From an uncultured Planctomycetota bacterium (GTDB taxonomy: Bacteria; Planctomycetota; PLA2; JAEUHO01), in the NCBI GenBank assembly GCA_963772585.1, contig CAVYXV010000004.1, positions 275,375-339,374 of the forward strand: DNA of 64,000 nucleotides, read 5' to 3'. Position numbers and translations under genes: made by a program. A model generated the notes under the pieces. It was not told where the DNA came from and did no database searches. It saw nothing but the letters and a program-made list of their open reading frames with translations. The stretch's first letter is position 1, and each line of letters starts with the position of its first letter. Below are positions 1-48,061 of the stretch, piece by piece.

Positions 1-331
1 GAGGTAGGCCAAGGCCCCGGCCGCCCAGCTGGCGTACTCGAGCTTGCTCGGCCCCCGGCCGTCGTGGGAGGCGTAGCCCATGGACTCGCTCGCGTCGATG
101 ACGAGATGGGCCTCGAGGTTGGTCTCCTCCTCGTATCGCTTGATGTAGAGGCGGTCCGTCCGTCCGTAGACCCGCCAGTCCAGGAAGCGGAGGTCGTCGC
201 CCGGGACGTATTCCCTGTGCTCGGCGAACTCCACGGAGAACCCGTGGAAGGGGCTCCGGTGCAGGCCCGAGACGTAGCCCTCGACGATGCGCTTCGCCTT
301 GAGCTCGAGCCCCGAGACCTGATCGAGGACC

Positions 332-361
<30 letters not shown>
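1..361 (-). CDS. DUF58-domain protein, partial (3' end runs off the window start)
   Basis: Reverse-strand translation of 1-361 reads ...[86 protein letters not shown]..., the hallmark DUF58 motif. It lies immediately downstream of MoxR on the same strand, and a candidate GTG start at 359-361 overlaps the MoxR stop. It is absent from the ORF track because it has no stop inside the window. Confidence 0.6.
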
Positions 362-1399
<1,038 letters not shown>

Positions 1400-5261: not shown

Positions 5262-6664
5262 GCGCCTCGCGGGACACCACCCCGGCGTTCGTGGCGTTGG
5301 GATCGAACGCCGCCGACGCGCGGGGTGCGCTCGAACGCGGGCTCGCCGGACTGGTCGAGGGAGGGGACGAGGTGGCCGCCGTCTCCCAACCCGTCCTCGC
5401 GCCGTACGAAACCGCGCCGGGCCGCCCCACCGACGCGGTCGCCCCCGTGCTCGACGTCGTCGTCCGGGTGGCGACGCGCCGCTCGGCCGAGGATCTCCTC
5501 GCGCGCCTCGGTGAGCTGGAGGACGCCGCCGGGCGCGTGCGCGACGGCCGCGGGGAGCGGACCCTCGACGCGGACCTCCTCGCCTACGGCGACCGCATCG
5601 CCGACGGGACGCCGACGCTCCCGCATCCCCGCGCGCTCGCGCGGGCCTTCGTGCTCGCGCCCTGGTCGGAGCTCGACCCGCTCTACCCCGTGCCCGGCAC
5701 GGGTGCGCGCGTCGTCGAGCACGAGCTGTCGCTCAAGGCGCGCCACCCGGAGCGCTTTGCCGCGCTCTCGTTCGAAGCGAGGCTCGCCCTGCCCGCGCGG
5801 GGCGCGCGACCGCTTCTCCTCCGGTACCGGGCGGCGCGCGAGGCATGGCGGCGAAACGTCAGGGGACCGGTGGGCGTGGTGCCCACGATGGGCGCGCTGC
5901 ACGAGGGCCACGCCTCGCTCCTTCGCCGGGCGCGGGCCGAGTGCGAGGCCGTCGCCGCGACGATCTTCGTGAACCCGATGCAGTTCGGACCCGCGGAGGA
6001 TCTGGAACGGTACCCGCGCACCCTGGAGGCGGACCTGGACGTGCTCGCGCGGGCGGGTGCGGATGCCGTCTACCTGCCGGCCGTCCCGGAGGTCTACCCC
6101 CCGGGGTTCGCCACGCGCGTCGTCCCCGAGGGACCGGCGGAGGGGCTCGAAGGGAACCGGCGGCCGGGCCATTTCGCGGGCGTGGCCACCGTCGTGCTGA
6201 AGCTGTGGTTGGCCATGAGACCCGACCGCATCTACTTCGGGAGGAAGGACGCCCAGCAGGTCGCCGTCGTCCGGCGGATGGCCCGCGACCTGGATCTCCC
6301 CGGCCGGATCGTGGTCGGGCCGACGGTCCGGGATCCGGACGGACTGGCGCTCTCGTCCCGCAACCGGTATCTCACACCGCCCGAGCGGGAGCAGGCGCTG
6401 GCCCTGCCCCGCGCCCTGGAGGCCCTGGTGCTCGAGGCATGGACGACGCCCGATGACGCCGAGGCCCCCGTGGCGAGGGCCCGTTCCGAGATGGAAGCGT
6501 GCGGGCTCGACGTGGACTACGTGGCGCTGGTGGACCCGGACACGATGCGCCCGGCCGCGGCGTCGGGGGATCCCGAGCTGGCCGTCGCCGCGGCCCGCAT
6601 CGGCAGGACGCGCCTGCTCGACAACCGGTGGGTGATCCGCCGTCCCGCGGGAGGCGCGCCGTGA
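5258..6664 (+). CDS. folK-panC: bifunctional 6-hydroxymethyl-dihydropterin pyrophosphokinase (FolK) / pantoate--beta-alanine ligase (PanC) fusion
   Basis: N-terminal part FVALGSNAADARGALERG...TLDADLLAYGDRIADGTPTLPHPRALARAFVLAPWSEL matches HPPK. C-terminal part ...RPLLLRYRAAREAWRRNVRGPVGVVPTMGALHEGHASLLRRA...FVNPMQFGPAEDLERYPR...GHFAGVATVVLKL...FGRKDAQQ... matches PanC. One continuous frame 5258-6664 with no stop and no plausible internal start ahead of the PanC module. The GTG start overlaps the pssA stop (GTGA). Confidence 0.8.
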   Translation: MSASRDTTPAFVALGSNAADARGALERGLAGLVEGGDEVAAVSQPVLAPYETAPGRPTDAVAPVLDVVVRVATRRSAEDLLARLGELEDAAGRVRDGRGERTLDADLLAYGDRIADGTPTLPHPRALARAFVLAPWSELDPLYPVPGTGARVVEHELSLKARHPERFAALSFEARLALPARGARPLLLRYRAAREAWRRNVRGPVGVVPTMGALHEGHASLLRRARAECEAVAATIFVNPMQFGPAEDLERYPRTLEADLDVLARAGADAVYLPAVPEVYPPGFATRVVPEGPAEGLEGNRRPGHFAGVATVVLKLWLAMRPDRIYFGRKDAQQVAVVRRMARDLDLPGRIVVGPTVRDPDGLALSSRNRYLTPPEREQALALPRALEALVLEAWTTPDDAEAPVARARSEMEACGLDVDYVALVDPDTMRPAAASGDPELAVAAARIGRTRLLDNRWVIRRPAGGAP

Positions 6665-9309
6665 CGCCCCGGGCCCCCTCCCTCGCGCTCGCCGCCCTCG
6701 TGCTGTTCCTCGCCGCGCCCCGGACCCCTGCGGCGGAGGAGCTCGCCGAGGCCCGGCACCGCTTCCTTTCCACGCGGGACGTGGCCGCCCTCCAGGCCGC
6801 CTTCGCGGGGAGCGCGCCTCGCGAGCCGGACGCCGTGACGGATGCACGCCTCGTGGGCCTCGCATCGCTCCCCGATGCGGAGGTGGCCGCGACCGGTGGC
6901 ACGGGCTACGCGGCCGTACCCGACGTGGTGACCGCGCTCCGGCGTCTCGACCCGACCGAGGCCGAAGGGGCGCTCACCCGCGTCCGCCAGCAAGCCCGCG
7001 TGTTCGAGCTCGACGGGTGGCTGGGCGCGCTGCTGGCCGCGCGGCGCGGCCGGGACGCGGACGCCGAGCAGACCCTGCGGTCGCTCGGCGCCTCGCCGGC
7101 ACCCGCGGAGGAGGCGGCCTTCCGTCTGGCGCTCGTGGGGGCGGCCCTCCCCGAAGACGACCGCCTCCTGCTCGCGGGAACGGCGCGCGAGGCGCTCCTC
7201 GCCGCCGCGACCGACGGCGACCTCGCCGCCGCCGAGGGCATCGGCCGGCGCCTGGCCGGCCTCGACCCGGGCTTCGGCGCCGAGGCGATCGGCCTCGCCG
7301 CCTTCGCGTGGACGCGGGCCGGTCGGCCCGAGCGAGGAGCGACGCTGTTCGAGGGCGCCGAGTCGCGCTGGGTGACGCCCGACGCGTCGGCCTTGCTGGC
7401 GCACGCCGCGTGGGCGTGGCGGCGGGGACGGCGGGCGGAAGCCTCCCGGCTCGTCGGCGACCGCGACATGCCCGCGGGGCTCGCGCCCATCGCGCAAGCC
7501 CTCGTGCGGGGCGGCGGTTCGCCCTCGTCTCCCGTGCCGGACGGTCCCGTCCACCTGCCTCCGGATCGCCGCGTGCCGGCGCTGGTCGCCGAGCTGGCGA
7601 GCGATCTGGGCGTCGCGACCACCCCGGCGGAGGTGGACGCGCGCGCCGTCGCGCTCGACCGGCAGAGCGACGAACTCGGCTTCGTCAAGCGCTTCCTCGA
7701 GGAGCGCGGCCTCGCCGTCCGCTGCTCGGCGGGCACGGATGCGGGGCTCGCCGGCGCCCTCGAGCGCGGGTACGCGGCCTTCCTGCTCCACCTGGAGGCG
7801 CCGCGGGACGGCTTCGAGTGGACATGGCGGCTGGTCCGGGCCCGGGACGCGGAGACCGGTCTGTGGATCGCCGAGACCGCGAACCTGGGGGATCCCGGTC
7901 TCCTCGCGCCCAACCTGCCGCGCGAGTCGCTGATGCTGCTCGTCGCTCCGGCGAAGGACGCGGACGGACTCGACGCCGTCGTGTCGGACGCGGAGAAGCG
8001 GCTCGGAACGGTCCTTCTCGACGCGATCTCGGACGCCGACGCCGGCCATCTGCGAGCCGGCGCCAACCGGATCCGCTCCGCCTACGAGGGAACGCCGCCG
8101 TACGTGGCCGCGGTTGCCGCGGCGTGGCTGCTCTACCAGCGATACGTCGAGACGCAGCCCAACTCCCCCGCGAACCAGGACCGCGTCGCCATCGCCGAGT
8201 GCCGCGACCTGCTCCAGCCGCTGTTGGGTGCCGGCGGCCTCTGCGCGTTCGTGCCGTACGGGTACGGTACGGCCACGCTGCTGGCCCCGGGAACGCGCGA
8301 ACCGGGCAAGGAGGCGGCCGCCGCCCTCGACCGCGCCCGCGACCTCGCGCCCGCCTCCGCCCAGGTGGCGCTTGCCGGCTCCGACGCGCACATCATCGCC
8401 GGGGACCGCGACGTCGCGTTTCGCGCCATCGAGCGCGCGCGGCGGCTCGACCCGCTCGACGTCCGCGCGCTCTTCAAGCGCGCCCTCATGCGGGACGCCC
8501 TCGGCGACACGGAGCGCGCCCGGGCCGACCTCCTCCGCGTCTTCGATCGCCGGCCCGATTGGGTTCGCGGAGCCATGGCGCTCACGCTGCTCGAGTTGAA
8601 CGCCGGCCTCCCGCGCGAGGCGCTCGCCCACCTCGACCGGCTCGTCGCGGCGGTGCCCGAGGTCGGTCAGGAGGAAGCCGTAAGACACCAGCGCGGCCGC
8701 GCCGAGGCCATGCTCCTGCAGCGCGCTTCCTCCGCGGACGAGGTCGAGCCGCTGCTCGCGAGCTCGCTACCGCAGACGAGGCGGTTGATCGCGTTCGCCC
8801 TCGCCCGGTGGGAGACGAACGAGTCCGAGGCGTTGATGCGCCGGCTCCTGCACGACGAGAACGAGGGCGTGCGCGGTACGGCGTTGAAGGTGTACATGCG
8901 TCCGTGGCTCCGCGCGCGCGTCGAGCAGGACACCGCGCTCGGGCGCACGATCCAGGATCTCCTCCACACGGACGAGTCGGAACTCGTCCGCGGAGCCGCC
9001 GCCGGCCTGCTCGGGCTCGTCGAGGCGACGTGGGCCGGACGCGAGCTCGCCAGCGCGCTGATCGGCAATCGCCGGGACGACTCGCCCTACGTCCGCGCGG
9101 AGGTGGCCAACGCCCTTACCCGCCACGACGGACCTCTCGCCCGCAAGAGCCTGGTCGCGGCGCTCGACGATCCCGACGCCGACGTTCGACGGGCCGCGAT
9201 CGACGCCCTGTTCCGGGTCGCCGCCACGTACCGGGGCTACGACCCCGACGCCTCCGCCGAGGCCCGGGCCGAAGCCGTCGCCCGCTGGCGGGCCTGGGCG
9301 GAACGGTAG
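6661..9309 (+). CDS. secreted TPR/HEAT-repeat protein (hypothetical)
   Basis: The GTG at 6661 overlaps the panC stop. N-terminal signal peptide (SLALAALVLFLAAPRTPAAEE), TPR-like helical repeats, and C-terminal HEAT/PBS-lyase-like repeats (DENEGVRGTAL..., DESELVRGAAAGLL..., DDSPYVRAEVANAL..., DPDADVRRAAIDAL). Confidence 0.6.
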   Translation: MTPRAPSLALAALVLFLAAPRTPAAEELAEARHRFLSTRDVAALQAAFAGSAPREPDAVTDARLVGLASLPDAEVAATGGTGYAAVPDVVTALRRLDPTEAEGALTRVRQQARVFELDGWLGALLAARRGRDADAEQTLRSLGASPAPAEEAAFRLALVGAALPEDDRLLLAGTAREALLAAATDGDLAAAEGIGRRLAGLDPGFGAEAIGLAAFAWTRAGRPERGATLFEGAESRWVTPDASALLAHAAWAWRRGRRAEASRLVGDRDMPAGLAPIAQALVRGGGSPSSPVPDGPVHLPPDRRVPALVAELASDLGVATTPAEVDARAVALDRQSDELGFVKRFLEERGLAVRCSAGTDAGLAGALERGYAAFLLHLEAPRDGFEWTWRLVRARDAETGLWIAETANLGDPGLLAPNLPRESLMLLVAPAKDADGLDAVVSDAEKRLGTVLLDAISDADAGHLRAGANRIRSAYEGTPPYVAAVAAAWLLYQRYVETQPNSPANQDRVAIAECRDLLQPLLGAGGLCAFVPYGYGTATLLAPGTREPGKEAAAALDRARDLAPASAQVALAGSDAHIIAGDRDVAFRAIERARRLDPLDVRALFKRALMRDALGDTERARADLLRVFDRRPDWVRGAMALTLLELNAGLPREALAHLDRLVAAVPEVGQEEAVRHQRGRAEAMLLQRASSADEVEPLLASSLPQTRRLIAFALARWETNESEALMRRLLHDENEGVRGTALKVYMRPWLRARVEQDTALGRTIQDLLHTDESELVRGAAAGLLGLVEATWAGRELASALIGNRRDDSPYVRAEVANALTRHDGPLARKSLVAALDDPDADVRRAAIDALFRVAATYRGYDPDASAEARAEAVARWRAWAER

Positions 9310-9347
9310 TCGCCGCCCGCGGCGGCGCGTGCCAAGATGGGGGGATC

Positions 9348-9710
9348 ATGCAGCGTTTCATGCTCCGCTCCAAGATCCACGGCGCCCGGGTCACCGAGGC
9401 CGACCTCCACTACGTCGGCAGCATCACGATCGACCGCGACCTGCTCGACGCGGCCGACCTCCTCCCCGGCGAGAAGGTCCTCGTCATCGACCTGGAGAGC
9501 GGCGCGCGACTGGAGACGTACGTCTTCGAAGGCGCCCGCGGCTCCGGCGTGATCGGCGTGAACGGGGGCGCGGCGCGCCATTGCCAGGTCGGCGACCGCC
9601 TGCTGATCATGGCGTTCGCCGCCCTCGAGGAGCACGAGTTGGCAGGGCACCGGCCCCGGCTCGTCTTCGTGGACGAGAACAACGCCGTCGGCTCTGCCGT
9701 CCGGTCCTGA
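9348..9710 (+). CDS. panD: aspartate 1-decarboxylase
   Basis: 120 aa: MQRFMLRSKIHGARVTEADLHYVGSITIDRDLLDAADLLPGEKVLVIDLESGARLETYVFEGARGSGVIGVNGGAARHC... is a textbook PanD, including the pyruvoyl-forming G-S site. It is buried inside spurious ORF 7017-9710 in the ORF track. Confidence 0.9.
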   Translation: MQRFMLRSKIHGARVTEADLHYVGSITIDRDLLDAADLLPGEKVLVIDLESGARLETYVFEGARGSGVIGVNGGAARHCQVGDRLLIMAFAALEEHELAGHRPRLVFVDENNAVGSAVRS

Positions 9711-9726
9711 AGGGCCGGGGCGGGAC

Positions 9727-11685
9727 GTGCTCCGGGTCGTCGTCGCCGCGCCGCCCTTCGTCGCCGACCCCGACGACCTCGCGCGCCTGCCGGCCGCGGC
9801 CGACATCGTCGAGCTCCGGCTCGACCTCCTGGAGGACGCCGCGCGCCGACCCGACGCCTGGGTCGAGCGCTCGCCACGCCCGGTGATGGCCACCGTGCGC
9901 CGTCGCGTCGAGGGCGGCGCCTTCGTCGGCACGCCCGAGGAGGCCGCGCGCATCCTCGAGCGCGCCGCCGCGGCCGGTGCGGCGTACCTCGACGTCGAGC
10001 AGGGCGTGGGGGACTACCTCGCGGCCCTCCCGGCGGGGGTCCGCCTCGTGGCGTCCCGGCACGGCGACGGGCCCTTCTCGTTCCGTCCTCCGGCGAGGAT
10101 CGCCGGTCGCGCGCCCGCCTTCGCGAAGCACGCGTGGCGCGTGGCCTCCCGCGCGGACCTCGAGGCAATGGAGCGGATCGTGTCGGGCGATGCCGCCGCA
10201 GGCGGCCCGGGCACCGTCGCCGTCCCGTTCGGTCCCCTCGGGGCGTTGAGGGCCGCGCTCTCCCGCGGCCTGCTCTACGGCGGCGCCGACGAGGCGGGCG
10301 TAGGCGTCGTCGAAGGCCAGCCTGCGCTGCGGGTCCTGCTCGACGAGCTGCGCGCCGGCGAGGTCACCCCCGGCGCCCGCCGCTTCGGCCTCCTGGGCCG
10401 CCCGCCCTCGCGATCGCCCTCGCCTGCGATGCACAACGCGGCCTTTCGTCACCACGATCTCGACGCGATCTACGTCCCGCTTCCCGGGCTCGACCCCGCG
10501 AGCGCCCTCGAGCTGGGCTTCGCGGGCTTCAGCGTCACGACGCCCTACAAGGCGGCCGCGCTCGCCGTGGCGTCCGAGGCGGACGCCACGGCCCGCGAGA
10601 CCGGGGCGGCGAACACCCTCGTCCTCGTCCCCGGCGGCTACCGCGCCTCGAACACGGACGTCGATGCCGTCGAGGCCGCGCTCCCGCCCGCCTCCCCCGG
10701 AGCGTCCGGCGCGTACGTCCACGGTGCCGGCGGGTACGCCCGGGCCGCGATCGTGGCCCTTCGCCGCCGCGGGTACGCGGTGCGCGTCGGCGCCCGGCGT
10801 GCCGAGGCCGCACGCGCGCTCGCCGATGCGTTCGGCATCGAGGGCGACGGCGGGATCTGGCGGCGGCGACGCGAGGATGCCGTCCTCGTGAACGCCACGC
10901 CGCTCGGCACCGACGGGACGCGTCCCGCGCCCCTCGCGGAGGGATCCCTGGAGGGTCTGTGGATCCTCGACGCGCCCTACGCCGCGGCGGGGAAGCGCAC
11001 CGGTCTCGAGGCGGCCGGGTCGGCCGAGGGAGCACGCGTCGTGGGCGGTCGCGCGCTCCTCCGTCTCCAGGCAAGGGCGCAGGCGGCCCTGTTCTGCGGA
11101 CGCGCCGTGCCTGACTTCGTGCTCGATCTCGCGCTGCGCTCGCTGCGCCCGCTGTGTCTGCTCGGGCTCCGTGGCGCCGGGAAGACGACGGCGGGGCGCC
11201 TCGTTGCCCGGCTCGCCGGCCGTCCCTTCCTCGACCTCGACGACGAGGTCGAACGCATCACGGGACGCACGCCGGCAACGTGGATCGAGACCGAGGGCGA
11301 AGCGGCGTTCCGGCGCGTCGAGGCGGACGCCCTCTCGCGGGTCGCCGGCCGGCGCGGTCTCGTCGTCGCGTGCGGCGGCGGCGTCCTCGAGCACCCGTCG
11401 TCCCGAACGATCATCGAGACGCAGGCGGATGCGGTGTGGCTCTCCCTACCGCCGGCGACGGCGGCGCGGCGCATGCGGGGGGACGCGCGACGGCGTCCCC
11501 CTCTCGTCGAGGGCGCCGGTGCCGAGGAGGAGGCACGCCTCCTCCTCCGGCGCCGCGAAGACGCCTGGCGGAGCGTGGCGGGGCAGATCGTCGACGCGTC
11601 CCGGGAGGGCGAAGCCGTCGCCCGCGACGTGCTCGAAGCATGGACCGGCATCCGCCTCGACGAATGCGCGAATCGCGCCCCCTGA
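9727..11685 (+). CDS. aroDEK: trifunctional shikimate-pathway fusion: type I 3-dehydroquinate dehydratase (AroD) - shikimate dehydrogenase (AroE) - shikimate kinase (AroK)
   Basis: N-terminal RVVVAAPPF...IVELRLDLLE...LVASRHG (type I DHQase-like). Middle RRFGLLGRPPSRSPSPAMHNAAFRHHDLDAIYVPL...FAGFSVTTPYKAAA...GAANTLV...GYRASNTDVDAV (AroE). C-terminal LCLLGLRGAGKTTAGRLVARLAGRPFLDLDDEVERITGRTPATWIETEGEAAFRRVEADAL...VVACGGGV (AroK P-loop). One 652-aa frame; GTG start 17 nt after panD. Confidence 0.8.
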   Translation: MLRVVVAAPPFVADPDDLARLPAAADIVELRLDLLEDAARRPDAWVERSPRPVMATVRRRVEGGAFVGTPEEAARILERAAAAGAAYLDVEQGVGDYLAALPAGVRLVASRHGDGPFSFRPPARIAGRAPAFAKHAWRVASRADLEAMERIVSGDAAAGGPGTVAVPFGPLGALRAALSRGLLYGGADEAGVGVVEGQPALRVLLDELRAGEVTPGARRFGLLGRPPSRSPSPAMHNAAFRHHDLDAIYVPLPGLDPASALELGFAGFSVTTPYKAAALAVASEADATARETGAANTLVLVPGGYRASNTDVDAVEAALPPASPGASGAYVHGAGGYARAAIVALRRRGYAVRVGARRAEAARALADAFGIEGDGGIWRRRREDAVLVNATPLGTDGTRPAPLAEGSLEGLWILDAPYAAAGKRTGLEAAGSAEGARVVGGRALLRLQARAQAALFCGRAVPDFVLDLALRSLRPLCLLGLRGAGKTTAGRLVARLAGRPFLDLDDEVERITGRTPATWIETEGEAAFRRVEADALSRVAGRRGLVVACGGGVLEHPSSRTIIETQADAVWLSLPPATAARRMRGDARRRPPLVEGAGAEEEARLLLRRREDAWRSVAGQIVDASREGEAVARDVLEAWTGIRLDECANRAP

Positions 11686-11701
11686 GGCGTTTCTCCGCGT
11701 C

Positions 11702-11729
11702 TTGACGGTTCGGTGGGGCGGCGTAGACT
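11702..11729 (+). promoter_or_regulatory. candidate sigma70-type promoter for the downstream HEAT-repeat gene
   Basis: TTGACG (11702-11707), a 16-nt spacer, then TAGACT (11724-11729), in the 156-bp gap after aroDEK and about 110 nt upstream of the 11842 start. Confidence 0.3.
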
Positions 11730-11841
11730 TCGCGTGGACCGCACTCCGGATGCGGGTTCGGCGGCGAGTCGATCCGGCAACTCCCTCCCTTGAGCCCCGG
11801 GCTCGTTCCGGATTCGGCCACCAGCCCCCGAGCCGATAGCC

Positions 11842-14472
11842 ATGACCGTGCATGTTCCTCTTCTTTCGCCGCTCCCGCCGAGGCGGCGAACTGCGACTGG
11901 GGTGCTCGCGTTCCTCGGCGTGCTCCTGGCGTGCCTGACCCTCGTCGCCACCGCGGTCGCCGGGGACCCCAAGGAGGACCCGGCCGACCCGCCCGGGCGG
12001 GAGCAACCTGCGCCGGAGACGCCGAACCCCGACCCGCCCCCGCCCCCTCCCCCGAAGGTGCCGGGAGGCCCCGTCGTCCCGCCGCCGGGACCGGGGCAGC
12101 CGGTCGAACCCGGCGCCGTCGAGCCGCCGCCGCCGCCGGAGGAGGACCTCTTCGCGGACCTGCTGGCGGGCAAGACGGACGGCGAGTGGCGCGGCGTGCT
12201 CAATCGCATCCGCAAGGAGAAGGACGCCACCTGGATCGGGAGGGAGCTCGGGCAGCTCTTCCGCGACCGCGCGCGCTTCGCCGATCGCGCCGACCTCGTG
12301 GCGTTCGCGGCGGCGTACCTGGCCGACAACCACAACGACGGGAAGGTGCTGCTCGCCGGCGACATCCTCCGTCGTGCGTACGGCGACGACGCGTTCCTGG
12401 AAGCGCTGCGGCGCCACATCACGGCGGGCGAAGGCGGCTGGGCCCGGCTTCTCGACGCGGCGCGCGCGATGCTCGCGTCCGAAGATCCCGAGAGCCGTGC
12501 CGTGGGCGCGTGGTTCCTCTGCCGCGAGGACGGGGAGCAGCGGGAGCGGGTCCGTCGCGACCTCCTCCAGCAGGCGCGCGCCGACCTGCCGTGGCTCGAA
12601 CAGGGCGGCGAGGCGGCCCGCGGTCTCGCCCGCGCCTACCTGGACGCCTTCGCGACGCTCCTCCAGTACCGCTTCCCGACGGTCGAGGAGGCCGTGGCCA
12701 CGCTGGAGAAGCTCGACGACCTCGACCTCGCCGCGCTCATCCGCGAGTTGTCCCGCCTGAAGGACGCTCCCACGTCGCCCCTCGCGAAGAAGACGCTGGA
12801 GTACGGCAAGCGCCTCGTCGATGCGGCCGTGGCCGCGGGCAAGGTCGAGGATCTCGAGGAGTTCCTGGACCCGGCACGGACGCCCATGGCCGCGGTTCGG
12901 CGCTACGCCATGCTGAAGGCCCCCTCGCTCGCGCCGTCCAACAACGCGGCGTGGGCCCGCATCCTGGAGAGGATCTTCCGGCGGGAGGACGACGCCGAGG
13001 TCCTGGGAGGGGCCCTGAACCTGCTCTCGCAGGTTCGTTTCGCCGAGCAGCCCGACCACGCCCTCGCGCTCTCCTCGGCGATCGCGCGCCGCCTGCTCGC
13101 CCACGGCGCGGTCGGCGGAGCCGCGCGCGATCGGACGGAGGACCGCGTGCGCATGGCGCAGGCCATCGCCTCACTCCGGGCGAGGACCGAGGAGTTCCGG
13201 ACCCTGCTCGACCACTCGGCCGAGCTCGAGACGCCGGTCCTGGCCGAGCTCGTCCGCGCGCTCGGGCGCATCGACGGGGCGAGCACGATGGAGATCCTCG
13301 GGTACTTCCGACAGGGAGACGACGGCAGCGACCGCGGCCGCGAGATCCGGATCGCCGCGGTGGACGCACTGGGCCGTCCCGGCCTGGGGGCGGCAGGGCA
13401 GGACGGCGACCGCGCCGGCGCCGCCCTGCGCGAGATGCTCGGCGGCGAAGGCGACCTGGGCATCGGCCGCGTGGACGATCCTCGCGTGCGGCTCAACGCC
13501 CTGCGGAGCCTGGGGAACCATCCGGGCGAGGCCACGGCCGACCTGCTGCGCCGGCTCGCGCTCGGAAGCGACGAGGCCGAGGCGAAGGTCGCCATCGTCG
13601 TGCTGCGCAAGATCGCCGTGTCGGGCGCCAACGCCGTGGGGGCGCTGGCGGAGATCGTGATCGACGAGACCGCCGCCACGCCGCGGCGGATCGAGGCCCT
13701 GCAGGCGCTTGCGGGGATGAAGGGGGCCGCGCAGGAAGACGCCGTCGTGCGGGCCCGCGGGACGGCGCGTCGCGTGCTCGAGTCGAAAGCCGATGTCGAG
13801 GTACGCAAGGAGGCCGCGCGGACCGCGGCGGCGCTCGCCGACCCCACGGCGCTCGACGCCGTCGCCGGCTTCTGGCTGGAGGCCCCCGCCGACGAGGACC
13901 GCCGCATCGCCTTCCGCGACTTGATCGACGCGGTCGCCTCCACCGGAGAGGGGCAGGACGTGGCGATCGCCCGCACGCTCGACGGGCTCCGCGGAAAGGC
14001 CCCGAAGGCGGGACTCGAGGCCCTCACGCGCTCGCTCCTCGAACGCCATCCCCGAAATCCCTTCCGGCGCGTCATGTGCCTGATCCTGCTCGACCGCGCG
14101 CAGGAGGAGGGCACTCCCCCCGACGCCGCCAGGGCCGCGCTGGAGGAGGCCGACCTGCTTCTCCAGGCCATCCTGGGCCCGGAGCCGCAGGACGACGAGT
14201 ACGGCGCCCTCGGCCTGCGCGTCCGGGTGAAGGCCCTGCTCGGGGATCTGGCGAAGGACGCCGCGGCGAAGAAGACGCACTGGCTGGAGGCGGTCCGCCT
14301 CGCGGCCCGGAGCACCGACCCCGAGGTCGCGACCGAGGGACGCGCCGTCGCGGAGCACTTCGACGATCCGAAGCTCTCCAAGGCGTTGACGCCCGACGAG
14401 CGGCGTCGACTGGGGGAGGATCGCGCGGCGCTCGAGAAGGTGCTCGTGGGGCGAACGCCGCCGGACCGGTAA
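11842..14472 (+). CDS. membrane-anchored or secreted HEAT-repeat protein with a proline-rich linker (hypothetical)
   Basis: ATG at 11842 (MTVHVPLLSPLP...). Hydrophobic segment VLAFLGVLLACLTLVATAVAG, then a PPPPPPPKVPGGPVVPPPGPG linker, then about 750 aa of regular ARM/HEAT-like helical repeats. The opposite-strand ORFs here are Ser/Arg/Ala junk. Confidence 0.55.
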   Translation: MTVHVPLLSPLPPRRRTATGVLAFLGVLLACLTLVATAVAGDPKEDPADPPGREQPAPETPNPDPPPPPPPKVPGGPVVPPPGPGQPVEPGAVEPPPPPEEDLFADLLAGKTDGEWRGVLNRIRKEKDATWIGRELGQLFRDRARFADRADLVAFAAAYLADNHNDGKVLLAGDILRRAYGDDAFLEALRRHITAGEGGWARLLDAARAMLASEDPESRAVGAWFLCREDGEQRERVRRDLLQQARADLPWLEQGGEAARGLARAYLDAFATLLQYRFPTVEEAVATLEKLDDLDLAALIRELSRLKDAPTSPLAKKTLEYGKRLVDAAVAAGKVEDLEEFLDPARTPMAAVRRYAMLKAPSLAPSNNAAWARILERIFRREDDAEVLGGALNLLSQVRFAEQPDHALALSSAIARRLLAHGAVGGAARDRTEDRVRMAQAIASLRARTEEFRTLLDHSAELETPVLAELVRALGRIDGASTMEILGYFRQGDDGSDRGREIRIAAVDALGRPGLGAAGQDGDRAGAALREMLGGEGDLGIGRVDDPRVRLNALRSLGNHPGEATADLLRRLALGSDEAEAKVAIVVLRKIAVSGANAVGALAEIVIDETAATPRRIEALQALAGMKGAAQEDAVVRARGTARRVLESKADVEVRKEAARTAAALADPTALDAVAGFWLEAPADEDRRIAFRDLIDAVASTGEGQDVAIARTLDGLRGKAPKAGLEALTRSLLERHPRNPFRRVMCLILLDRAQEEGTPPDAARAALEEADLLLQAILGPEPQDDEYGALGLRVRVKALLGDLAKDAAAKKTHWLEAVRLAARSTDPEVATEGRAVAEHFDDPKLSKALTPDERRRLGEDRAALEKVLVGRTPPDR

Positions 14473-25972: not shown

Positions 25973-27343
25973 TCACGCCGGGGCGAGCCGCGATGTGAAG
26001 TGCCTGAGCTGCGGCGGCTCCTCGACGATCGTGAAGCCCCGGAGCTCCTCCTTCTTCTGCACCACCGCCGCGGCGACCTCCAGGACGTAGTCGATGTGGC
26101 TTTGCGTGTAGACGCGACGGGGGATGGCGAGGCGGAGCAGCTCCAACATCGCGAAGCGCTCCTCTCCCGTACGCGGGTCCTTACCGCCGAACATCAGCGA
26201 GCCGATCTCGACGCCTCGGACGCCGCCCTCCTCGTAGAACGCGCAGGCCAGCGCCTGCCCCGGGAAGCGACCCCGCGGGACGTGGGGGAGGAAGGCGCCC
26301 GCGTCGATGTAGATCGCGTGGCCACCGGGGGGCTGGACGATCGGGATCCCCAACTTCAGGAGTCCCTCCCCGAGATAGCGCGTGGAGGCGATGCGGTAAT
26401 TCAGGTAGTCCTCGTCGACGACCTCGGTGAGCCCTACGGCGATCGCCTCGAGATCCCGGCCGGCGAGGCCCCCGTACGTGGGGAATCCCTCGGTCAGGAT
26501 CAGGAGGTTCTCCTCCTGCTGCGCGAGCGTGTCGTCGTTCGTGGCGAGGAAGCCGCCGATGTTGGCGAGGCCGTCCTTCTTCGCGCTGAAGGTGGCTCCG
26601 TCGGCGAGCGAGAACATCTCCCGCGCGATCGACTCGACCGTGCGCTCCGCGTACCCCTCCTCGCGCAGCTTGATGAAGTATGCGTTCTCCGCGAAGCGGC
26701 AGGCGTCGAGGTAGAAGGGGACGCCGTGCCGGTGCGCCACGTCGCTGGCGCCCCTCAAGTTCGCCATCGACACCGGCTGGCCGCCGCCGGAGTTGTTCGT
26801 CACCGTGGCGATGACGCAGGCGATCTCGCCGGGGTTCTCGACGAGCATGGTCTCGAGGCGCTCGAGGTCGATGTTGCCCTTGAAGGGGTGGCGGTTCGCC
26901 GGCTCGCGGGCCTCGGGGATGGGGATGTCGATCGCCGTGCCGCCCGGGTACTCCACGTTCGCCCGGGTCGTGTCGAAGTGGGTGTTCGCCAGGACCGTCT
27001 TCCCCTTCACGTCCAGACAGGCGAAGAGGATCCGCTCCGCGGCCCGACCCTGGTGGGTGGGGATGATGTGCTTGAAGCCCGTGAGTTCCTCGGTGCGGGC
27101 CTTGAACCGGAACCAGGAGCGTGCCCCGGCGTAGGACTCGTCCCCCCGCATGATGCCCGCCCACTGTTCGGACGACATCGCTCCGGTGCCCGAGTCCGTC
27201 AGGAGGTCGATGAGGATGTCCTCGGCACGGATCCGGAAGAGGTTCCAGTCGGCCGCCTCGAGGATGCGCCGGCGCTCCTCCTTCGTCGTCATCCGGAGCG
27301 GTTCGACGCTCTTGATCCGGAAGGGTTCGATGATGGTGGCCAC
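25973..27343 (-). CDS. beta-eliminating lyase, tyrosine phenol-lyase / tryptophanase family
   Basis: ...IEPFRIKSVEP...DLLTDSGTGAMSSEQWAGIMRGDESYAGARS...FKHIIPTHQGRAAE...GGQPVSMANLRG...ENAYFIKLREEGY...SAKKDGLANIGGFLA...YGGLAGRD...PRRVYTQSHIDYV... aligns residue-by-residue with TPL/TnaA (PLP Lys in SAKKD). The GTG start at 27343 has a perfect AGGAGG 4 nt upstream; the ORF-track start at 27373 is a TTG. Confidence 0.85.
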   Translation of the reverse strand: MATIIEPFRIKSVEPLRMTTKEERRRILEAADWNLFRIRAEDILIDLLTDSGTGAMSSEQWAGIMRGDESYAGARSWFRFKARTEELTGFKHIIPTHQGRAAERILFACLDVKGKTVLANTHFDTTRANVEYPGGTAIDIPIPEAREPANRHPFKGNIDLERLETMLVENPGEIACVIATVTNNSGGGQPVSMANLRGASDVAHRHGVPFYLDACRFAENAYFIKLREEGYAERTVESIAREMFSLADGATFSAKKDGLANIGGFLATNDDTLAQQEENLLILTEGFPTYGGLAGRDLEAIAVGLTEVVDEDYLNYRIASTRYLGEGLLKLGIPIVQPPGGHAIYIDAGAFLPHVPRGRFPGQALACAFYEEGGVRGVEIGSLMFGGKDPRTGEERFAMLELLRLAIPRRVYTQSHIDYVLEVAAAVVQKKEELRGFTIVEEPPQLRHFTSRLAPA

Positions 27344-27451
27344 GGTGCCTCCTGGTCGCGGGACGTGCTTCAAGAGGCATCATCAGGGGGGACCGCGCCC
27401 GTGGCCAACCTGGGCGGCAGTGGGTAGGGTGGGCGGATCCGGAGTCCCCGC

Positions 27452-30218: not shown

Positions 30219-30767
30219 TCAGGAGTCGCCGGCACCGACGACCGCCCCGATCCAGGGGAGGTGGCGGTAGCTCTCCGCCCAGTCGATGCCGTAGCCCACC
30301 AGGAACTCGTTCGCCACGCGGAATCCGACGTAGTCGCCCTCGCACGCCACGACCCGACGGCTCGGCTTGTCGAGCAGCACGCAGGTCTCGATGCTCGCGG
30401 CGCCGCGGGCGAGCAGCAGGCGGCGGGCTTCGTCCAGCGAACGACCGCTGTCCAGGATGTCGTCGATCACGAGCACCATGCGCCCCGTCAGGTCCGTCGT
30501 CGGTTCGGCGCGGACGTCCACGACGCCGCGGCTCTTCGTGCCCGCGCCGTAGCTGGCGAGCGAGAGGAAGTCGATCTGGGGGCGCAGGCCGTGGCGATGG
30601 AGCGCCCGGACCAGATCGGCCGCGAAGACGAAGGCGCCCTTGAGAAGGACGATCAGCACGGGCGGCGGCGCCGGACCGGGGGGATGCGCGGCCGCGATCT
30701 CCTCTGCCAGGCGTTCGACGCCGGCGGCGATCTCTTCTTCGGAGATTCTCGGCGAGACGTCGGCCAA
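30219..30767 (-). CDS. hpt: hypoxanthine-guanine phosphoribosyltransferase
   Basis: ISEEEIAAGVERLAEEI...VLIVLLKGAFVFAADLVRAL...IDFLSLASYGAGTKSRGVV...GRMVLVIDDILDSGRSL... gives the PRPP-binding VLVIDDILDSG motif and Hpt order. TTG start with GGAGGA upstream. This is the real C-terminal part of the 1355-aa shadow ORF 30219-34286(-). Confidence 0.85.
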   Translation of the reverse strand: MADVSPRISEEEIAAGVERLAEEIAAAHPPGPAPPPVLIVLLKGAFVFAADLVRALHRHGLRPQIDFLSLASYGAGTKSRGVVDVRAEPTTDLTGRMVLVIDDILDSGRSLDEARRLLLARGAASIETCVLLDKPSRRVVACEGDYVGFRVANEFLVGYGIDWAESYRHLPWIGAVVGAGDS

Positions 30768-30836
30768 CGCGCGTCCTCCCACGCCCACGGGGGAATCGCG
30801 TATCCTATGCCGGCGTCCCCGGGGAGTGCAGCAACC

Positions 30837-33422
30837 ATGCGCGTGCACACCGCCACGGTCCGGCTGGCTCTCGTTCTCGCGCTGCTCCTGCCGGCGGCGC
30901 CGCTCCTCGCCGCGGAGCGGGAGGTCGCGAGGGACGACGGGGAGCAGGCGGGCAAGCAGAGCATCGCGGGCACCGGGCACGGGATCCTCTTCGACGCGCC
31001 GAAGCGCGAGCGTTGGATCACCGCCGTCCGCGTCCACGGCGCGCGCTACGGCGGAGGCTACGACCCCGCGACCGCCACCTTCCACGTCGCCGTCTGCGAC
31101 CAGCACCTCGCCGTCCTTCACGAGATCGAGGCGCCGTACTCCCTCTTCGCCGCGGGGCGTTTCGGGTGGGTGGATGTCCCGCTCGACGTCGCCCTCGAAG
31201 TTCCGGACCGTTTCGCCGTGGTCGTGGCGTTCGATCCCACGGCATCGCGCGGCGTGTTCGTGGGGTGGGCGCACACGGAAGGCAGCCACTCGTTCCAGGG
31301 CCTCCCCGGCGGCGAGAGGCGTCCCGTGGCGACGGACCGCGAGTGGATGATCCGCGCGGTGCTCGCGAGCCGGCCGCCGCGCGACCTGCCGCGCGTGGTC
31401 GAGGTGGCGGTCGAGGACGGGGAGAAGATCGGGGAGAAGAGCCTCGGCGGGAGCGCCCACACCGTCCTCCTGCGCCGACCGTCCGGATCGTGGTGGGTGA
31501 CGACGGTCCGGGTGTACGGACGGCGCTACGGCGGCGGTTACGACCCGGCGAAGACGACCTTCTCGGTCGTCCTCCGCGACCGGCGCGGCAGGGTGCTCGG
31601 CGAGGCCGAGGCGCCGTACGGCGCGTTCGGGACGGGCGGCTTCTCGTGGGTGGACGTGCCGATCCCGAAGGCCCTCGAGATCCCGTCGCGCTTCCTCGGC
31701 ACGGTGGACTTCGAGCCCACCCGCACGAAGGGGGTCTACGTCGCCTACGCGAAGCCGACCGCCAAGGGCGCGGCGTTCACCGGCCGTGCCGACGAGGAGC
31801 CCCGCGACTTCGGCGACGGCGCCTGGATGATCCGTGCGCGCCTCGTGGACCGCGAGCCGCAGCCGCCGGAAGCGATGCCCGAGCCGACGGCCGATCCGGC
31901 GCGCTACCTCGACGACCTCCGTGCCGTCGGGAGGATCGTGGCGAAGAACTTCCCCGTCTTCGAGAAGAAAGGCATCGACTGGAAGACGGTCCTCGACGAG
32001 TTCGAGGCGAGGGTCCGCGACGTCCACGACGACGCGGCGTACGTCCTGGAGATCCACCGCCTCCTGGCGCGGCTCGACGACGTCCACTCGGGCGTGCTCG
32101 ACGCGAAGGTCGACGTGCACGTCCCGTCCTTCGACGGGCTCTACGGCGCGGGACTGTGGATCGCACGCGACCGGGGCCGCCTGCTGCTCCGCGCGGCCAC
32201 GCCGGGCCATCCGCTGCTCGACCGCGTGCCGCCGGGTTCGCTCCTCTTGCGGGTCGGCGGCCGCCCTGCGGGCGTCGTGCTCGCGGAGACGCGCCGCCGC
32301 CTGCACACGTGGCACGGTTGGTCGTCGGACGCCTTCCTCGACGCGCGCCTGTCCTTCCAGTTCTTCCCCTTCGGGGAGGCGAAGACCCTGGAGGCGACGT
32401 TCCTTCCGCTGTCGGGCGGGAGGGCCGTGACGGTGGACCTCGCCCGATGGGGACCCGGGGGCCGGGGGCTCTCGCGCCAGGCGGCGACGATGCCGGACGG
32501 CGTTCCGGCCGAAGGGCCCGTCGCCTCGGCGAAGCTGGCGGGGGAGATCGGCTACCTCCGCATCCTCGGCGGGATGGACGAGCGGACGGAGAAGGCCTTC
32601 TTCGAGGCCGTGGACGGTCTGAAGGGCGTGAAGGGGATCCTGCTGGACGCTCGCGGCATGGGCGGGGGATCGGACCGCCCCGCCTGGCGGATGGCGGGGC
32701 GCTTCTTCTCGAAGCGCCGTCGTCTGCCCAACGATCCCGACCTCGAGCCCACCGGCGACTGGCCGTTCGACGGCCCCGTCGTGATGCTCCAGGACGAACG
32801 CATGGTCTCCTCCGCGGAGACGTTCACGTGGGCCATGGTCGAGACGGATCGCGCGCTGTCGGTGGGGCGTCCGACCGGCGGCGGCACGATCATCCCCCGC
32901 GTGTTCGACGACCCCGCGGGCCTGTTCCGGTTCCGCCTGGGCTGCGTCGATCGCGAGACGTCCGTGGAGGGCGTCCACCCCGAAGGCGTGGGTACGGCGC
33001 CGGACGTGTTCGTGCCCTACGACGCGTGGCTGCTCGCGCTCCACCCCGACCCCGTGCGCGCGGTGGGCCTCGACGTCCTGCGGCGCCTCGTCCAAGGCCA
33101 GCCCGCCGAGGTCGTGGCCGCGGGGTACGGCGGCGTGCTGGGCGCGGCGCCCGACCGTCTGGGAGACGGCGCGTGGAAGGCGTTCGCCGCCCTCGCCGAG
33201 CCCGCGGGCCTCGACCTCCCGGGGCTCTGCCCCCATGCGGCCCGGCGCATGATCGACGAGGAGATCCGCGTCCACGACGCCGAGGCCGACCCGGTGCCGG
33301 ACGGGGGCGGGTCTTCGGAGCGGCTCGCCGCCCTCGCCCGCGTGGCGGACGCGGTGGGGCTCGAGGACGCGGCGCGCCGTGCGCGCGAAGCTCTCGAGGC
33401 CTGGCTCTCGGAGGGCCGGTGA
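30837..33422 (+). CDS. secreted S41-family serine peptidase with two tandem-duplicated N-terminal domains
   Basis: Signal peptide MRVHTATVRLALVLALLLPAAPLLAAE. Two homologous modules of about 100 aa (RWITAVRVHGARYGGGYDPATATF...GRFGWVDVPLDVALEVPDRF... and WWVTTVRVYGRRYGGGYDPAKTTF...GGFSWVDVPIPKALEIPSRF...). The C-terminal part has ...GYLRILGGMDE...GILLDARGMGGGSDRPAWRMAGRF...VVMLQDERMVSSAETF..., matching the S41 Ser/Lys-dyad region. Confidence 0.7.
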   Translation: MRVHTATVRLALVLALLLPAAPLLAAEREVARDDGEQAGKQSIAGTGHGILFDAPKRERWITAVRVHGARYGGGYDPATATFHVAVCDQHLAVLHEIEAPYSLFAAGRFGWVDVPLDVALEVPDRFAVVVAFDPTASRGVFVGWAHTEGSHSFQGLPGGERRPVATDREWMIRAVLASRPPRDLPRVVEVAVEDGEKIGEKSLGGSAHTVLLRRPSGSWWVTTVRVYGRRYGGGYDPAKTTFSVVLRDRRGRVLGEAEAPYGAFGTGGFSWVDVPIPKALEIPSRFLGTVDFEPTRTKGVYVAYAKPTAKGAAFTGRADEEPRDFGDGAWMIRARLVDREPQPPEAMPEPTADPARYLDDLRAVGRIVAKNFPVFEKKGIDWKTVLDEFEARVRDVHDDAAYVLEIHRLLARLDDVHSGVLDAKVDVHVPSFDGLYGAGLWIARDRGRLLLRAATPGHPLLDRVPPGSLLLRVGGRPAGVVLAETRRRLHTWHGWSSDAFLDARLSFQFFPFGEAKTLEATFLPLSGGRAVTVDLARWGPGGRGLSRQAATMPDGVPAEGPVASAKLAGEIGYLRILGGMDERTEKAFFEAVDGLKGVKGILLDARGMGGGSDRPAWRMAGRFFSKRRRLPNDPDLEPTGDWPFDGPVVMLQDERMVSSAETFTWAMVETDRALSVGRPTGGGTIIPRVFDDPAGLFRFRLGCVDRETSVEGVHPEGVGTAPDVFVPYDAWLLALHPDPVRAVGLDVLRRLVQGQPAEVVAAGYGGVLGAAPDRLGDGAWKAFAALAEPAGLDLPGLCPHAARRMIDEEIRVHDAEADPVPDGGGSSERLAALARVADAVGLEDAARRAREALEAWLSEGR

Positions 33423-46548: not shown

Positions 46549-46636
46549 TAGACGTACGGAAGCCAGGACAGGAACCGCGGCGATGTCGCACCGCGGGTGC
46601 GGGCGAGCCGCCCGAGGGGCACGCTCGCACCCCGTC

Positions 46637-47749
46637 CTACGCCGGCTTCCCCACCCTCCGCCGCCGGAGTCTCGCCTCGCGGTGGCGCAGCGCTTCCTCC
46701 GCGCGGCTCCCGCGCGGCACCTGCTCCAGGGCGCGTTCGACCCAGACGAGCGCGCCCTCGTAGTCGCGCCGGCGGTGTTCGAGGAGCTTCGCCACGTGCT
46801 CGTGCGCCTCCAGGTGGAAGCGGCCGTCGAGCGTCGCCAGCCGTTCGAAGCACGCGAGCGCGCGGTCGAAGACGCCGGTCCGGCGGTACTGGTGGGCGAG
46901 CGCCTCCAGGACGCGGCGGAGGTCGTCGCCGCCGGCCCGGTCGGCGGCGTCCTCCAGGCAGGCCAAGGCGTCGTCGGGGCGATCCAGGTCGAGCAGCAAC
47001 CGCGCCGTCGAGGGGGCGTCGCCGGGGCACGTGTCCCTGCGCCCGTCGGTCCCGTCCAGCACCCGGGCGATCCGTCCCATCAGGGCGACCATGCTGATCA
47101 CGTCGTCGGCGTTGTGCACGAAGGCCCGGGCGACCTCGCGCGGGTCTCCGGTCCGGAGGTAGTCGAAGTACGCCTGCGGGACGAGTTCGCTCGGGAGGTC
47201 GTCCTTCCGGACGAAGCCGAGGACCTCGCGCTCCAGGGCGCCCAGGCGGTGCGACGCGAGGCTCCGGGCCCACAGTCGCCGCGCCGGGACGAGCAGGTCG
47301 AGGTGCGCGCGCGGCGCGGGTTCGATCCGCTTCATGCGGAAGCGCGTGACGAGGAGGGGCCAGTCGAACGTTCGTCCGTTGAACGTGACGAGGGGGTGGT
47401 CGGCGAGGTCCTCGGCGAGCGCCTCGAGCATCGCGTCCTCTTCCGGATAGTCGCGGATGCCGTACTGGCGGATGACGAGGTCGTCGCTTTCGACGCGCCC
47501 CGTGCCGACGAGGAACGCGACGGTGCCCGTCCCGCCGGCGAGGCCCGTGGTCTCCGTGTCGAGGAAGAGCGCGTCCCGGGGGGAGAGAGCGACCCGCCCG
47601 CCGTTCCCCCGCTCCGCGCCGCGGAGCGGAACCGAGTGGCGGATCGCCTCGGCGAGCCGTCCGGTTCCGTGGAGACGATCGAGCGGGACGCGCCGCTCCG
47701 CCTGCAGGAACGGTCCACGGCTCGTCGAGCGCAGGCTTCCCCCGACCAT
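46637..47749 (-). CDS. DEDD-type 3'-5' exonuclease (RNase H-like, YprB/MrfB-like) with a C-terminal helical/TPR-like region
   Basis: ...ALFLDTETTGLAGGTGTVAFLVG... (Exo I motif DxE), ...LVTFNGRTFDWPLL... (Exo II), ...FVHNADDVISM... (Exo III). This is the real C-terminal portion of the 1478-aa shadow ORF 46637-51073(-). Confidence 0.65.
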   Translation of the reverse strand: MVGGSLRSTSRGPFLQAERRVPLDRLHGTGRLAEAIRHSVPLRGAERGNGGRVALSPRDALFLDTETTGLAGGTGTVAFLVGTGRVESDDLVIRQYGIRDYPEEDAMLEALAEDLADHPLVTFNGRTFDWPLLVTRFRMKRIEPAPRAHLDLLVPARRLWARSLASHRLGALEREVLGFVRKDDLPSELVPQAYFDYLRTGDPREVARAFVHNADDVISMVALMGRIARVLDGTDGRRDTCPGDAPSTARLLLDLDRPDDALACLEDAADRAGGDDLRRVLEALAHQYRRTGVFDRALACFERLATLDGRFHLEAHEHVAKLLEHRRRDYEGALVWVERALEQVPRGSRAEEALRHREARLRRRRVGKPA

Positions 47750-48061
47750 CGAACCCAGGTCCGGTCCCTGCCATCGAGGCGGACGGGGGGCCGGCGGTTC
47801 GGCTCCCCGCTGGACGGCCAGCGCCCGGAGTCGCTCGCGGACGCCGGGTCGGCCCGGCCCGTCCTCGGCGACCACGGGCCGGGGATCGCCCCGACCGTCT
47901 CCGAGCGTCGATCGGATGAGGGAACGGCGCACGGTCACACCCGGGATTCTACGCGTCGGCTCCCCCGGGGACGCGGGCGCGGGCGATCCGCGCGTAGACT
48001 CTCGCGCCTGGCCGCGTCCGTGCCGGTCGAGCGGAGTGCAGGGCGGGGCCCGGAGGTCTCC

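Follow-up and report, generated by a model that had tools for sequence, protein, structure and literature searches.

A single Planctomycetota gene for a predicted trifunctional dehydroquinase, shikimate dehydrogenase and shikimate kinase

In a stretch of 64,000 nucleotides from an uncultured Planctomycetota bacterium (assembly GCA_963772585.1, contig CAVYXV010000004.1, positions 275,375 to 339,374; hereafter the window), a single gene of 652 codons encodes a type I 3-dehydroquinate dehydratase (dehydroquinase, DHQase; D), an AroE-type shikimate dehydrogenase (SDH; E) and a shikimate kinase (SK; K), fused in the order D-E-K. Judging from its domains, its conserved active-site residues and its predicted fold, this open reading frame (ORF) very probably encodes a trifunctional enzyme of the shikimate pathway that would carry out steps 3, 4 and 5, from dehydroquinate to shikimate-3-phosphate. 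An earlier note on this DNA spoke of three consecutive or near-consecutive steps; they are strictly consecutive.

Results

A genuine single gene with three modules

The fusion ORF (Table 1) is free of internal stop codons and contains the motifs SRSPSPAMHNAAF, SVTTPYK, SNTD and GLRGAGKTT. A domain search, which had been proposed as a check, found three Pfam domains above their gathering thresholds in the D-E-K order: DHquinase_I (PF01487; residues 19-112, 43.5 bits, cut-off 22.2), Shikimate_dh_N (PF08501; residues 222-298, 53.5 bits, cut-off 27) and SKI (PF01202; residues 482-638, 120.4 bits, cut-off 22.1), the last near full length (positions 1-157 of the 159 in the profile). The NCBIfam aroE models align over residues 220-463, and so cover the entire dehydrogenase including its Rossmann half, and the AroK/AroL models align over residues 474-639. 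Among solved structures, the best relative of the N-terminal 215 residues is the DHQase half of the Arabidopsis dehydroquinase-shikimate dehydrogenase (DHQ-SDH; phmmer, E=1e-08, residues 23-207). The kinase module is matched by solved shikimate kinases with E-values from 5e-24 to 1e-18 (4y0a, 5.4e-24; 1shk, 1.1e-21), and the residues beyond 215 also match AROM proteins, the Arabidopsis DHQ-SDH and many AroE structures. Together, the Pfam, NCBIfam and solved-structure matches bear out the earlier claim of three modules in the order D-E-K on one uninterrupted chain of 652 amino acids (aa). The connector between D and E was placed between about residue 207, where the DHQase alignment stops, and residues 217-222, where the SDH alignments begin.

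The window has a GC content of about 73% (roughly 70-77%) and is rich in long chance or shadow ORFs, which are present in all frames. In several other lineages, moreover, the D-E and K parts are truly separate, adjacent genes. Both facts would fit an artefact, in which the long ORF arose by chance at high GC or neighboring aroDE and aroK genes were joined through an assembly or frameshift error, but this explanation is effectively refuted. The GC content of the fusion frame at the first, second and third codon positions (0.82/0.59/0.90) is of the coding type and resembles that of the other real genes of the window, whereas an overlapping minus-strand ORF of 595 aa (9607..11394) failed the same filter and resembles a shadow ORF produced by high GC. 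The identical 652-aa protein, with identical neighbors, is present in an independent assembly (Logan ERR11594398), and the identical protein sequence is recorded in NCBI/ENA (P0001). The junction is ordered in the structural model and is read through in about 38 relatives, which come from different samples; colinear D-E-K proteins furthermore make up at least 86 clusters at the 50% identity level. Stops or frameshifts coinciding with the domain boundaries, which the earlier note considered fatal to the fusion, were sought and none was found; the homologs are colinear over both junctions, and the junction blocks have a predicted local distance difference test (pLDDT) value of at least 86. The GTG at 9727 is the first start codon after the preceding stop and the most upstream one available in frame, and the alignments with homologs begin at residues 1-3 of the fusion protein (consensus MLxVVVAAPP). 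It is thus confirmed that the aroD-aroE-aroK fusion is a genuine single gene.

Table 1. Location of the fusion gene, its modules and key residues, the upstream gene panD, and the unfused gene pairs of relatives. Coordinates refer to the window unless a relative is named.
Feature	Location	Strand	Basis or remark
aroD-aroE-aroK fusion coding sequence	9727..11685	+	652 codons + stop, GTG start, ORF list
Type I 3-dehydroquinate dehydratase domain, residues ~1-207	9727..10347	+	Pfam PF01487, Arabidopsis DHQ-SDH match
Catalytic His112	10060-10062	+	Maps to E. coli AroD H143
Schiff-base Lys134	10126-10128	+	Maps to E. coli AroD K170
D-to-E connector, residues ~208-216 (~9 residues)	10348..10374	+	Between DHQase and SDH alignments; pLDDT block 86-97
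AroE-type shikimate dehydrogenase domain, residues ~217-472	10375..11142	+	PF08501, NCBIfam aroE alignments
Catalytic Lys275	10549-10551	+	Maps to E. coli AroE K65
Catalytic Asp311	10657-10659	+	Maps to E. coli AroE D102
Rossmann motif GAGGYAR	Residues 333-339 of the fusion protein	+	SDH module
Shikimate kinase domain, residues ~473-640 (~170 residues)	11143..11646	+	Pfam PF01202
Walker A, G480-T487	11164-11187	+	Kinase module
panD (aspartate 1-decarboxylase)	9348..9710	+	Pfam Asp_decarbox, 157.3 bits; upstream of fusion
Separate adjacent aroDE + aroK ORFs	L012 9890..11980		ORF inspection; single in-frame stop between them
Separate adjacent aroDE + aroK ORFs	L017 9950..12139		ORF inspection
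Separate adjacent aroDE + aroK ORFs	L037 9860..12039		ORF inspection; anammox metagenome-assembled genome
Separate adjacent aroDE + aroK ORFs	L058 5366..7495		ORF inspection; Calditrichaceae metagenome-assembled genome
Separate adjacent aroDE + aroK ORFs	L065 2288..4404		ORF inspection
Separate adjacent aroDE + aroK ORFs	L072 1405..3613		ORF inspection

Active-site residues are conserved in all three modules

The fusion protein was aligned with 36 relatives (alignment A1, 37 sequences), to which E. coli AroD, AroE and AroK were added for residue mapping. Each catalytic or substrate-binding residue of the three E. coli enzymes that could be mapped is present. In the DHQase module, E46, R48, R82, E86, H143 and K170 of E. 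coli AroD correspond to E29, R31, R58, E62, H112 and K134; His112 and Lys134 are each kept in 36 of the 37 aligned sequences, and E29, R31 and R58 are invariant. By inspection, the invariant R175 in a GxLxxLR segment is likely the equivalent of E. coli R213, and family conservation suggests that Q198 is likely that of Q236. In the SDH module, residues S14, S16, T61, K65, N86, T101, D102, Y215 and Q244 of E. coli AroE are found as S230, S232, T271, K275, N296, T310, D311, Y418 and Q448, and these catalytic and shikimate-binding positions are invariant or nearly so in the A1 alignment. A degenerate P-loop in the kinase, which the earlier note named as another way in which its reading could fail, is ruled out: the Walker A residues (G480, G485-K486-T487), the DxD (D503/D505), FRxxE (R529/E532) and GGG (G550-552) motifs, the Arg-Pro of the lid (R590-P591) and the late arginine (R610) are all present, and are kept in at least 35 of the 37 sequences.

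In a second alignment, of 36 diverse D-E-K proteins, the catalytic residues of the three modules are all invariant at a mean column identity of only 32%, a pattern that points to purifying selection at each of the three active sites. The feature is real and almost certainly functional.

Predicted structure and relation to known multidomain enzymes

An AlphaFold2 model built from the 37-sequence alignment is a single compact body, with a mean pLDDT of 94.6 and a predicted template modeling (TM) score (pTM) of 0.94. Such a high pTM for a three-domain chain of 652 residues indicates confidence in how the domains are placed relative to one another as well. In the DHQase module, eight predicted strands within residues 2-186 form a compact barrel, as in a (beta/alpha)8 fold, and the pLDDT of the block is at least 86 except at residues 151-160, where it is about 67. 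At the junction between E and K, the last SDH helix (463-470) of the model is followed by a short ordered connector and the first strand of the kinase (476-479).

In a Foldseek search against the PDB, the Arabidopsis DHQ-SDH structures ranked first. The predicted D-E unit superimposes on the crystal structures 2o7q, 2gpt and 6bmb with a target-normalized TM score of 0.69-0.71 and a root-mean-square deviation (rmsd) of 5.1-5.3 Å over about 513 columns, at 26-27% identity, and AroE structures match the SDH part with target-normalized TM scores of 0.7-0.84. The fungal AROM/Aro1 structures, in contrast, fit the model poorly (rmsd of about 18 Å, TM score of about 0.33). The D-E core is thus plant-like in its arrangement and AROM-like in function only. 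The label "AROM-like" given to the protein in the earlier note therefore holds for its function, but not for its D-E arrangement.

Like the fusion protein, the plant DHQ-SDH of Arabidopsis thaliana (2gpt, 2o7q, 2o7s, 6bmb) carries a type I DHQase N-terminal to an SDH on one chain, with the catalytic His/Lys and Lys/Asp pairs in common. It ends after the SDH, however, whereas the fusion protein carries a complete kinase behind it, and the DHQase domain of the fusion protein is the shorter of the two. The well-characterized AROM/Aro1 proteins of fungi and apicomplexans (6hqv, 7u5s, 7tbv) likewise join consecutive shikimate steps on one chain, including type I DHQase, SDH and SK, and the fusion sequence matches these three segments of AROM. 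They have five domains in the order DHQS-EPSPS-SK-DHQase-SDH, in contrast to the three of the fusion protein, DHQase-SDH-SK, without DHQS or EPSPS; the earlier statement that the domain order differs from that of fungal AROM is correct. The fusion protein is neither a member of the AROM family nor simply a plant-type DHQ-SDH. A relationship of the plant DHQ-SDH to planctomycete enzymes is an existing idea, and stands alongside the structural and sequence similarity seen here.

Two-domain relatives share parts of this architecture. The AroD-AroE fusions of Planctomycetes, Acidobacteria and some archaea have the D-E core in common with the fusion protein, but are about 490-520 aa long and lack the kinase; the published count is 198 assemblies of Planctomycetes and 88 of Acidobacteria (PMC11237513). 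These counts and the Arabidopsis structures agree with the earlier remark that bifunctional DHQ-SDH proteins occur in plants and some bacteria. AroE-AroK fusions, reported in Methanomicrobiales and two bacterial assemblies (PMC11237513), have the E-to-K order in common but are devoid of the DHQase domain. Metagenomic proteins with K-D-E (P0098) or EPSPS-K-D-E (P0114) combine the same three families with the kinase in an N-terminal position, an order that is AROM-like.

The D-E-K architecture is common in uncultured Planctomycetota

A word-indexed search retrieved about 38 proteins of 600-680 aa with 42-58% identity and the same three Pfam domains, the named close relatives being proteins from metagenome-assembled genomes (MAGs) of Planctomycetota or Planctomycetia. 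An exhaustive profile search was made against 1.84 billion representatives clustered at 50% identity. Of the best 150 clusters, which were examined, at least 86 match colinearly from the dehydroquinase through the kinase; as judged from the domain orders checked, the same 150 also hold 16 E-K, 16 D-E and 6 K-D-E proteins. With a profile of diverse D-E-K proteins, about 30 more proteins (690-750 aa) were recovered, which form another clade and are labeled Phycisphaerales or Planctomycetota. Single D-E-K members are labeled Deltaproteobacteria or Parvarchaeota MAG, labels that are uncertain given MAG binning. All D-E-K proteins that were found derive from uncultured material. Relatives with D-E only were found at 29-39% identity, and matches to the E-K part only come from Sutterella, Olsenella, Atopobiaceae and Coprovicinus loci.

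The phylogenetic survey that the earlier note called for thus finds the architecture to be common in uncultured Planctomycetota; it is not rare, and would not surprise a specialist. The names given to D-E-K proteins usually cover one or two of the three activities: NCBI names them by one activity, either "type I 3-dehydroquinate dehydratase" or "shikimate dehydrogenase", and JGI sometimes names all three ([quoted passage not shown]). A literature search for trifunctional or D-E-K shikimate fusions retrieved no paper that describes the D-E-K order, although such a search is not proof of absence. The D-E-K family is catalogued in databases but uncharacterized, and falls within the known class of multifunctional shikimate-pathway fusions.

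Other domain combinations were met along the way. P0121 (1016 aa, from a Planctomycetota MAG; cluster members P0209, P0211 and P0213) is a four-module chain in which D-E-K is preceded by a predicted NADP oxidoreductase, an extra N-terminal stretch of about 300 residues composed of F420_oxidored and DUF2520. DUF2520 proteins have been associated with ketopantoate reductase (PanG), which would fit a panD neighborhood. In the representative library, the K-D-E protein P0098 (SK-DHQase-SDH) has 663 aa and P0114 (EPSPS-SK-DHQase-SDH, that is, AROM minus DHQS) has 1086 aa. P0165 is DHQase-SDH-ThiF, P0109 and P0119 consist of an SK followed by two Shikimate_dh_N stretches, and P0099 is named as a dinoflagellate AROM fragment.

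Fused and split forms

In a species-level genome collection, six loci carry an aroDE gene of about 500 aa followed by an aroK gene of about 180 aa (Table 1). A tblastn look had pointed to a full-length fusion in each of these loci, and these candidates were rejected because each proved to consist of two ORFs; a D-E-K fusion in the anammox and Calditrichaceae MAGs is accordingly rejected, their DE and K genes being separate.

On a neighbor-joining tree of the D-E region, which is rough and without support values, the window protein belongs to a tight clade that comprises about 19 representatives, every one of them fused. Elsewhere on the tree fused and split forms occur as sister pairs (L072/P0085, L065/P0080 and L017/P0082). 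The sequences and lengths of the junctions differ among the fused clades and some lineages are split, so that fusion at the aroDE-aroK junction seems recurrent. The simplest reading of these comparisons is that fusion, or splitting, of a conserved aroDE-aroK pair has taken place on more than one occasion. Fusion would probably have occurred when a pre-existing aroDE gene lost its stop codon and the spacer that separated it from the aroK gene adjacent downstream.

Genomic neighborhood

The GTG of the fusion gene follows the end of panD after 16 nucleotides, in line with the earlier description of the fusion as lying directly after panD, and no terminator-like site was found within 9200..12000. 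From this gap and the lack of a terminator-like site, cotranscription of panD and the fusion gene is plausible. A sigma-70-like promoter match (11702-11729, plus strand; TTGACG, 16-nucleotide spacer, TAGACT) lies after the stop codon of the fusion gene and before an ORF of 876 aa. panD is also found upstream of the fusion gene in L007-L011 and L013, at 0.9-3.1 kb, and in relatives another gene intervenes.

At L009 the intervening gene is an ORF of 291 aa (9126..10001), located downstream of panD and directly adjoining the start of the fusion. It has an IspE-like GHMP-kinase N-terminus (AKLNLWLDVLGRRPDGYHD), the IspE identity coming from motif reading only. The panD-fusion gaps in L007, L008, L010, L011 and L013 were grouped with that of L009 as sites of an intervening IspE-like ORF, and no IspE-like gene is present between panD and the fusion in the window. 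Upstream of panD, the L009 ORF at 6368..8665 (plus strand) contains a PanC-like motif (LVPTMGALHAGH), read by eye; its long N-terminal region may be FolK-like, or may be a spurious extension in a high-GC locus. This ORF suggests a further fusion in the pantothenate neighborhood.

In the window, panD and the fusion gene are preceded by a gene for a HEAT-repeat protein of about 880-936 aa (6499..9309, plus strand) and followed by the gene for the 876-aa protein (11842..14472, plus strand), which is without a Pfam match; both neighbors show synteny with the fusion gene in several relatives (L006-L011). No other shikimate-pathway gene, and no standalone aroD, aroQ, aroE or aroK, is present among the 30 called genes of the 64-kb window. 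The neighbors are housekeeping-type genes, and no catabolic or secondary-metabolite cluster was recognized among the called genes. The only other gene of the window with a possible tie to aromatic amino-acid metabolism encodes a beta-eliminating lyase of the tryptophanase/tyrosine phenol-lyase family (25973..27373, minus strand; 251 bits), and it is not next to the fusion. Elsewhere, two very large tricorn-like proteases with Peptidase_S41 and Tricorn_C1 domains are encoded on the plus strand (30261..33422 and 46583..51409), the second of which has 1608 aa and additional PD40 beta-propeller repeats. A MoxR-type AAA+ ATPase (AAA_3, 212 bits) and then a DUF58 protein cut at the window edge, a usual pairing, are found at 1..1399 on the minus strand.

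Discussion

From the domains, the reading frame, the conserved residues and the predicted fold we infer the catalytic activities and the cofactor of the fusion protein. In the DHQase, Lys134 would form the Schiff base and His112 would serve as general base in the dehydration of 3-dehydroquinate to 3-dehydroshikimate. The SDH would then reduce 3-dehydroshikimate to shikimate with Lys275 and Asp311 as the catalytic pair and with a nicotinamide cofactor, which is probably NADPH, and the kinase would phosphorylate shikimate with ATP to shikimate-3-phosphate using Lys486, Asp503/Asp505, Arg529, the GGG loop, Arg590 of the lid and Arg610. The benefit of the fusion would most likely lie in fixed 1:1:1 co-expression and in proximity; an irreversible kinase step placed beside a reversible reduction could pull that reduction forward.

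Several observations weigh against a trifunctional enzyme. Both C-terminal modules score below the NCBIfam equivalog cut-offs: the best model for the SDH, NF001319, gives 128.5 against a cut-off of 252, and TIGR00507 gives 99.4 against 200.2; for the kinase, the values are 89.9 against 161 for NF002988 (AroL) and 88.2 against 186 for NF010552. As all NCBIfam scores are below their cut-offs, the sequences of the modules are divergent. The DHQase module is divergent as well: E. coli AroD is longer by about 45 residues, the DHquinase_I match spans only positions 14-125 of the 230 in the profile, its N-terminal half, and machine alignment to E. coli AroD is unreliable over the C-terminal third of the domain (affecting R213, F225 and S232). 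In the SDH the cofactor pocket reads A-R-R, and A-R-D in most relatives, compared to N-R-T in E. coli AroE: R357 is invariant, A356 and R358 are the residues of the window protein, and the residue after R357 is an aspartate in 22 of 37 relatives. Arg154 of E. coli AroE, which belongs to the NADP(H) pocket with N149-R150-T151, aligns with A361. The literature search found no enzymology for any D-E-K protein. Among AROM proteins, that of C. thermophilum shows no gain in throughput over its isolated domains, and the fused DHQase of C. albicans Aro1 is inactive through active-site substitutions (PMC9074039).

The last example bears directly on the possibility that one module, most likely the divergent DHQase, is dead or structural. 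The protein would then be bifunctional, and an enzyme encoded elsewhere in the genome, for instance a type II dehydroquinase, would have to take over the step that is lost. In C. albicans this role has been taken by the type II enzyme Dqd1 (PMC9074039), and the weak, partial Pfam match and reduced length of the DHQase domain described above would fit a similar situation. No inactivating substitutions like those of C. albicans Aro1 were seen in the DHQase active site of the fusion protein, however. His112 and Lys134 are nearly universal in the A1 alignment and E29, R31, R58 and R175 are invariant there; the equivalent histidine and lysine are also invariant over the diverse D-E-K proteins, and the eight-stranded barrel is complete at high model confidence. 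In addition, no aroQ or aroD was found within the 64-kb window, which is a small part of the genome. A bifunctional protein with a dead DHQase therefore appears improbable.

A different pathway for the fusion protein, such as quinate/shikimate catabolism or a secondary-metabolite branch with a YdiB-, RifI- or quinate-dehydrogenase-like central domain, is more improbable still. The SDH superfamily does include quinate and aminoshikimate dehydrogenases, quinate dehydrogenases are among the Foldseek matches, and the central domain falls under all NCBIfam aroE equivalog cut-offs. Yet the top NCBIfam matches are aroE and not ydiB models, the kinase has all its shikimate-binding residues and would commit the product to the biosynthetic direction, and the surrounding genes are of the housekeeping type, with no catabolic or secondary-metabolite cluster. 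Moreover, Thr271, four residues ahead of the catalytic lysine, is kept in 36 of 37 relatives; its position is the site changed to glycine in the Arabidopsis T381G structure 6bmb, a substitution that presumably relates to quinate use. We regard the module as a divergent AroE-like SDH, assigned through its residues and context and not through a curated threshold, and favor the biosynthetic, trifunctional enzyme.

Whether enzymes of this pathway fuse for channeling, for stoichiometry or for co-regulation is a classic question for which shikimate-enzyme fusions serve as test cases. The pTM of the model and the short ordered connector between E and K would suggest a rigid machine with three active sites, and the paper on the structure of the Arabidopsis DHQ-SDH mentions implications for metabolic channeling in its title (cited in PMC11237513). 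That such a D-E-K machine, unlike AROM, truly channels dehydroquinate through to shikimate-3-phosphate, and that its repeated, independent fusion in Planctomycetota and other phyla reflects selection for channeling, nevertheless seems rather unlikely to us.

The single-activity names used by NCBI could have a practical consequence: a metabolic reconstruction that relies on product names could mistakenly take these Planctomycetota MAGs to lack aroE and aroK. As a compact bacterial three-step protein whose D-E core is plant-like and which has natural unfused counterparts in related lineages, the D-E-K fusion would be a convenient comparative system. If channeling were to hold, it would be the simplest natural system for asking why shikimate enzymes fuse, and a close prokaryotic analog of the plant DHQ-SDH. 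Apart from this, the fusion protein has a housekeeping role in an expected pathway.

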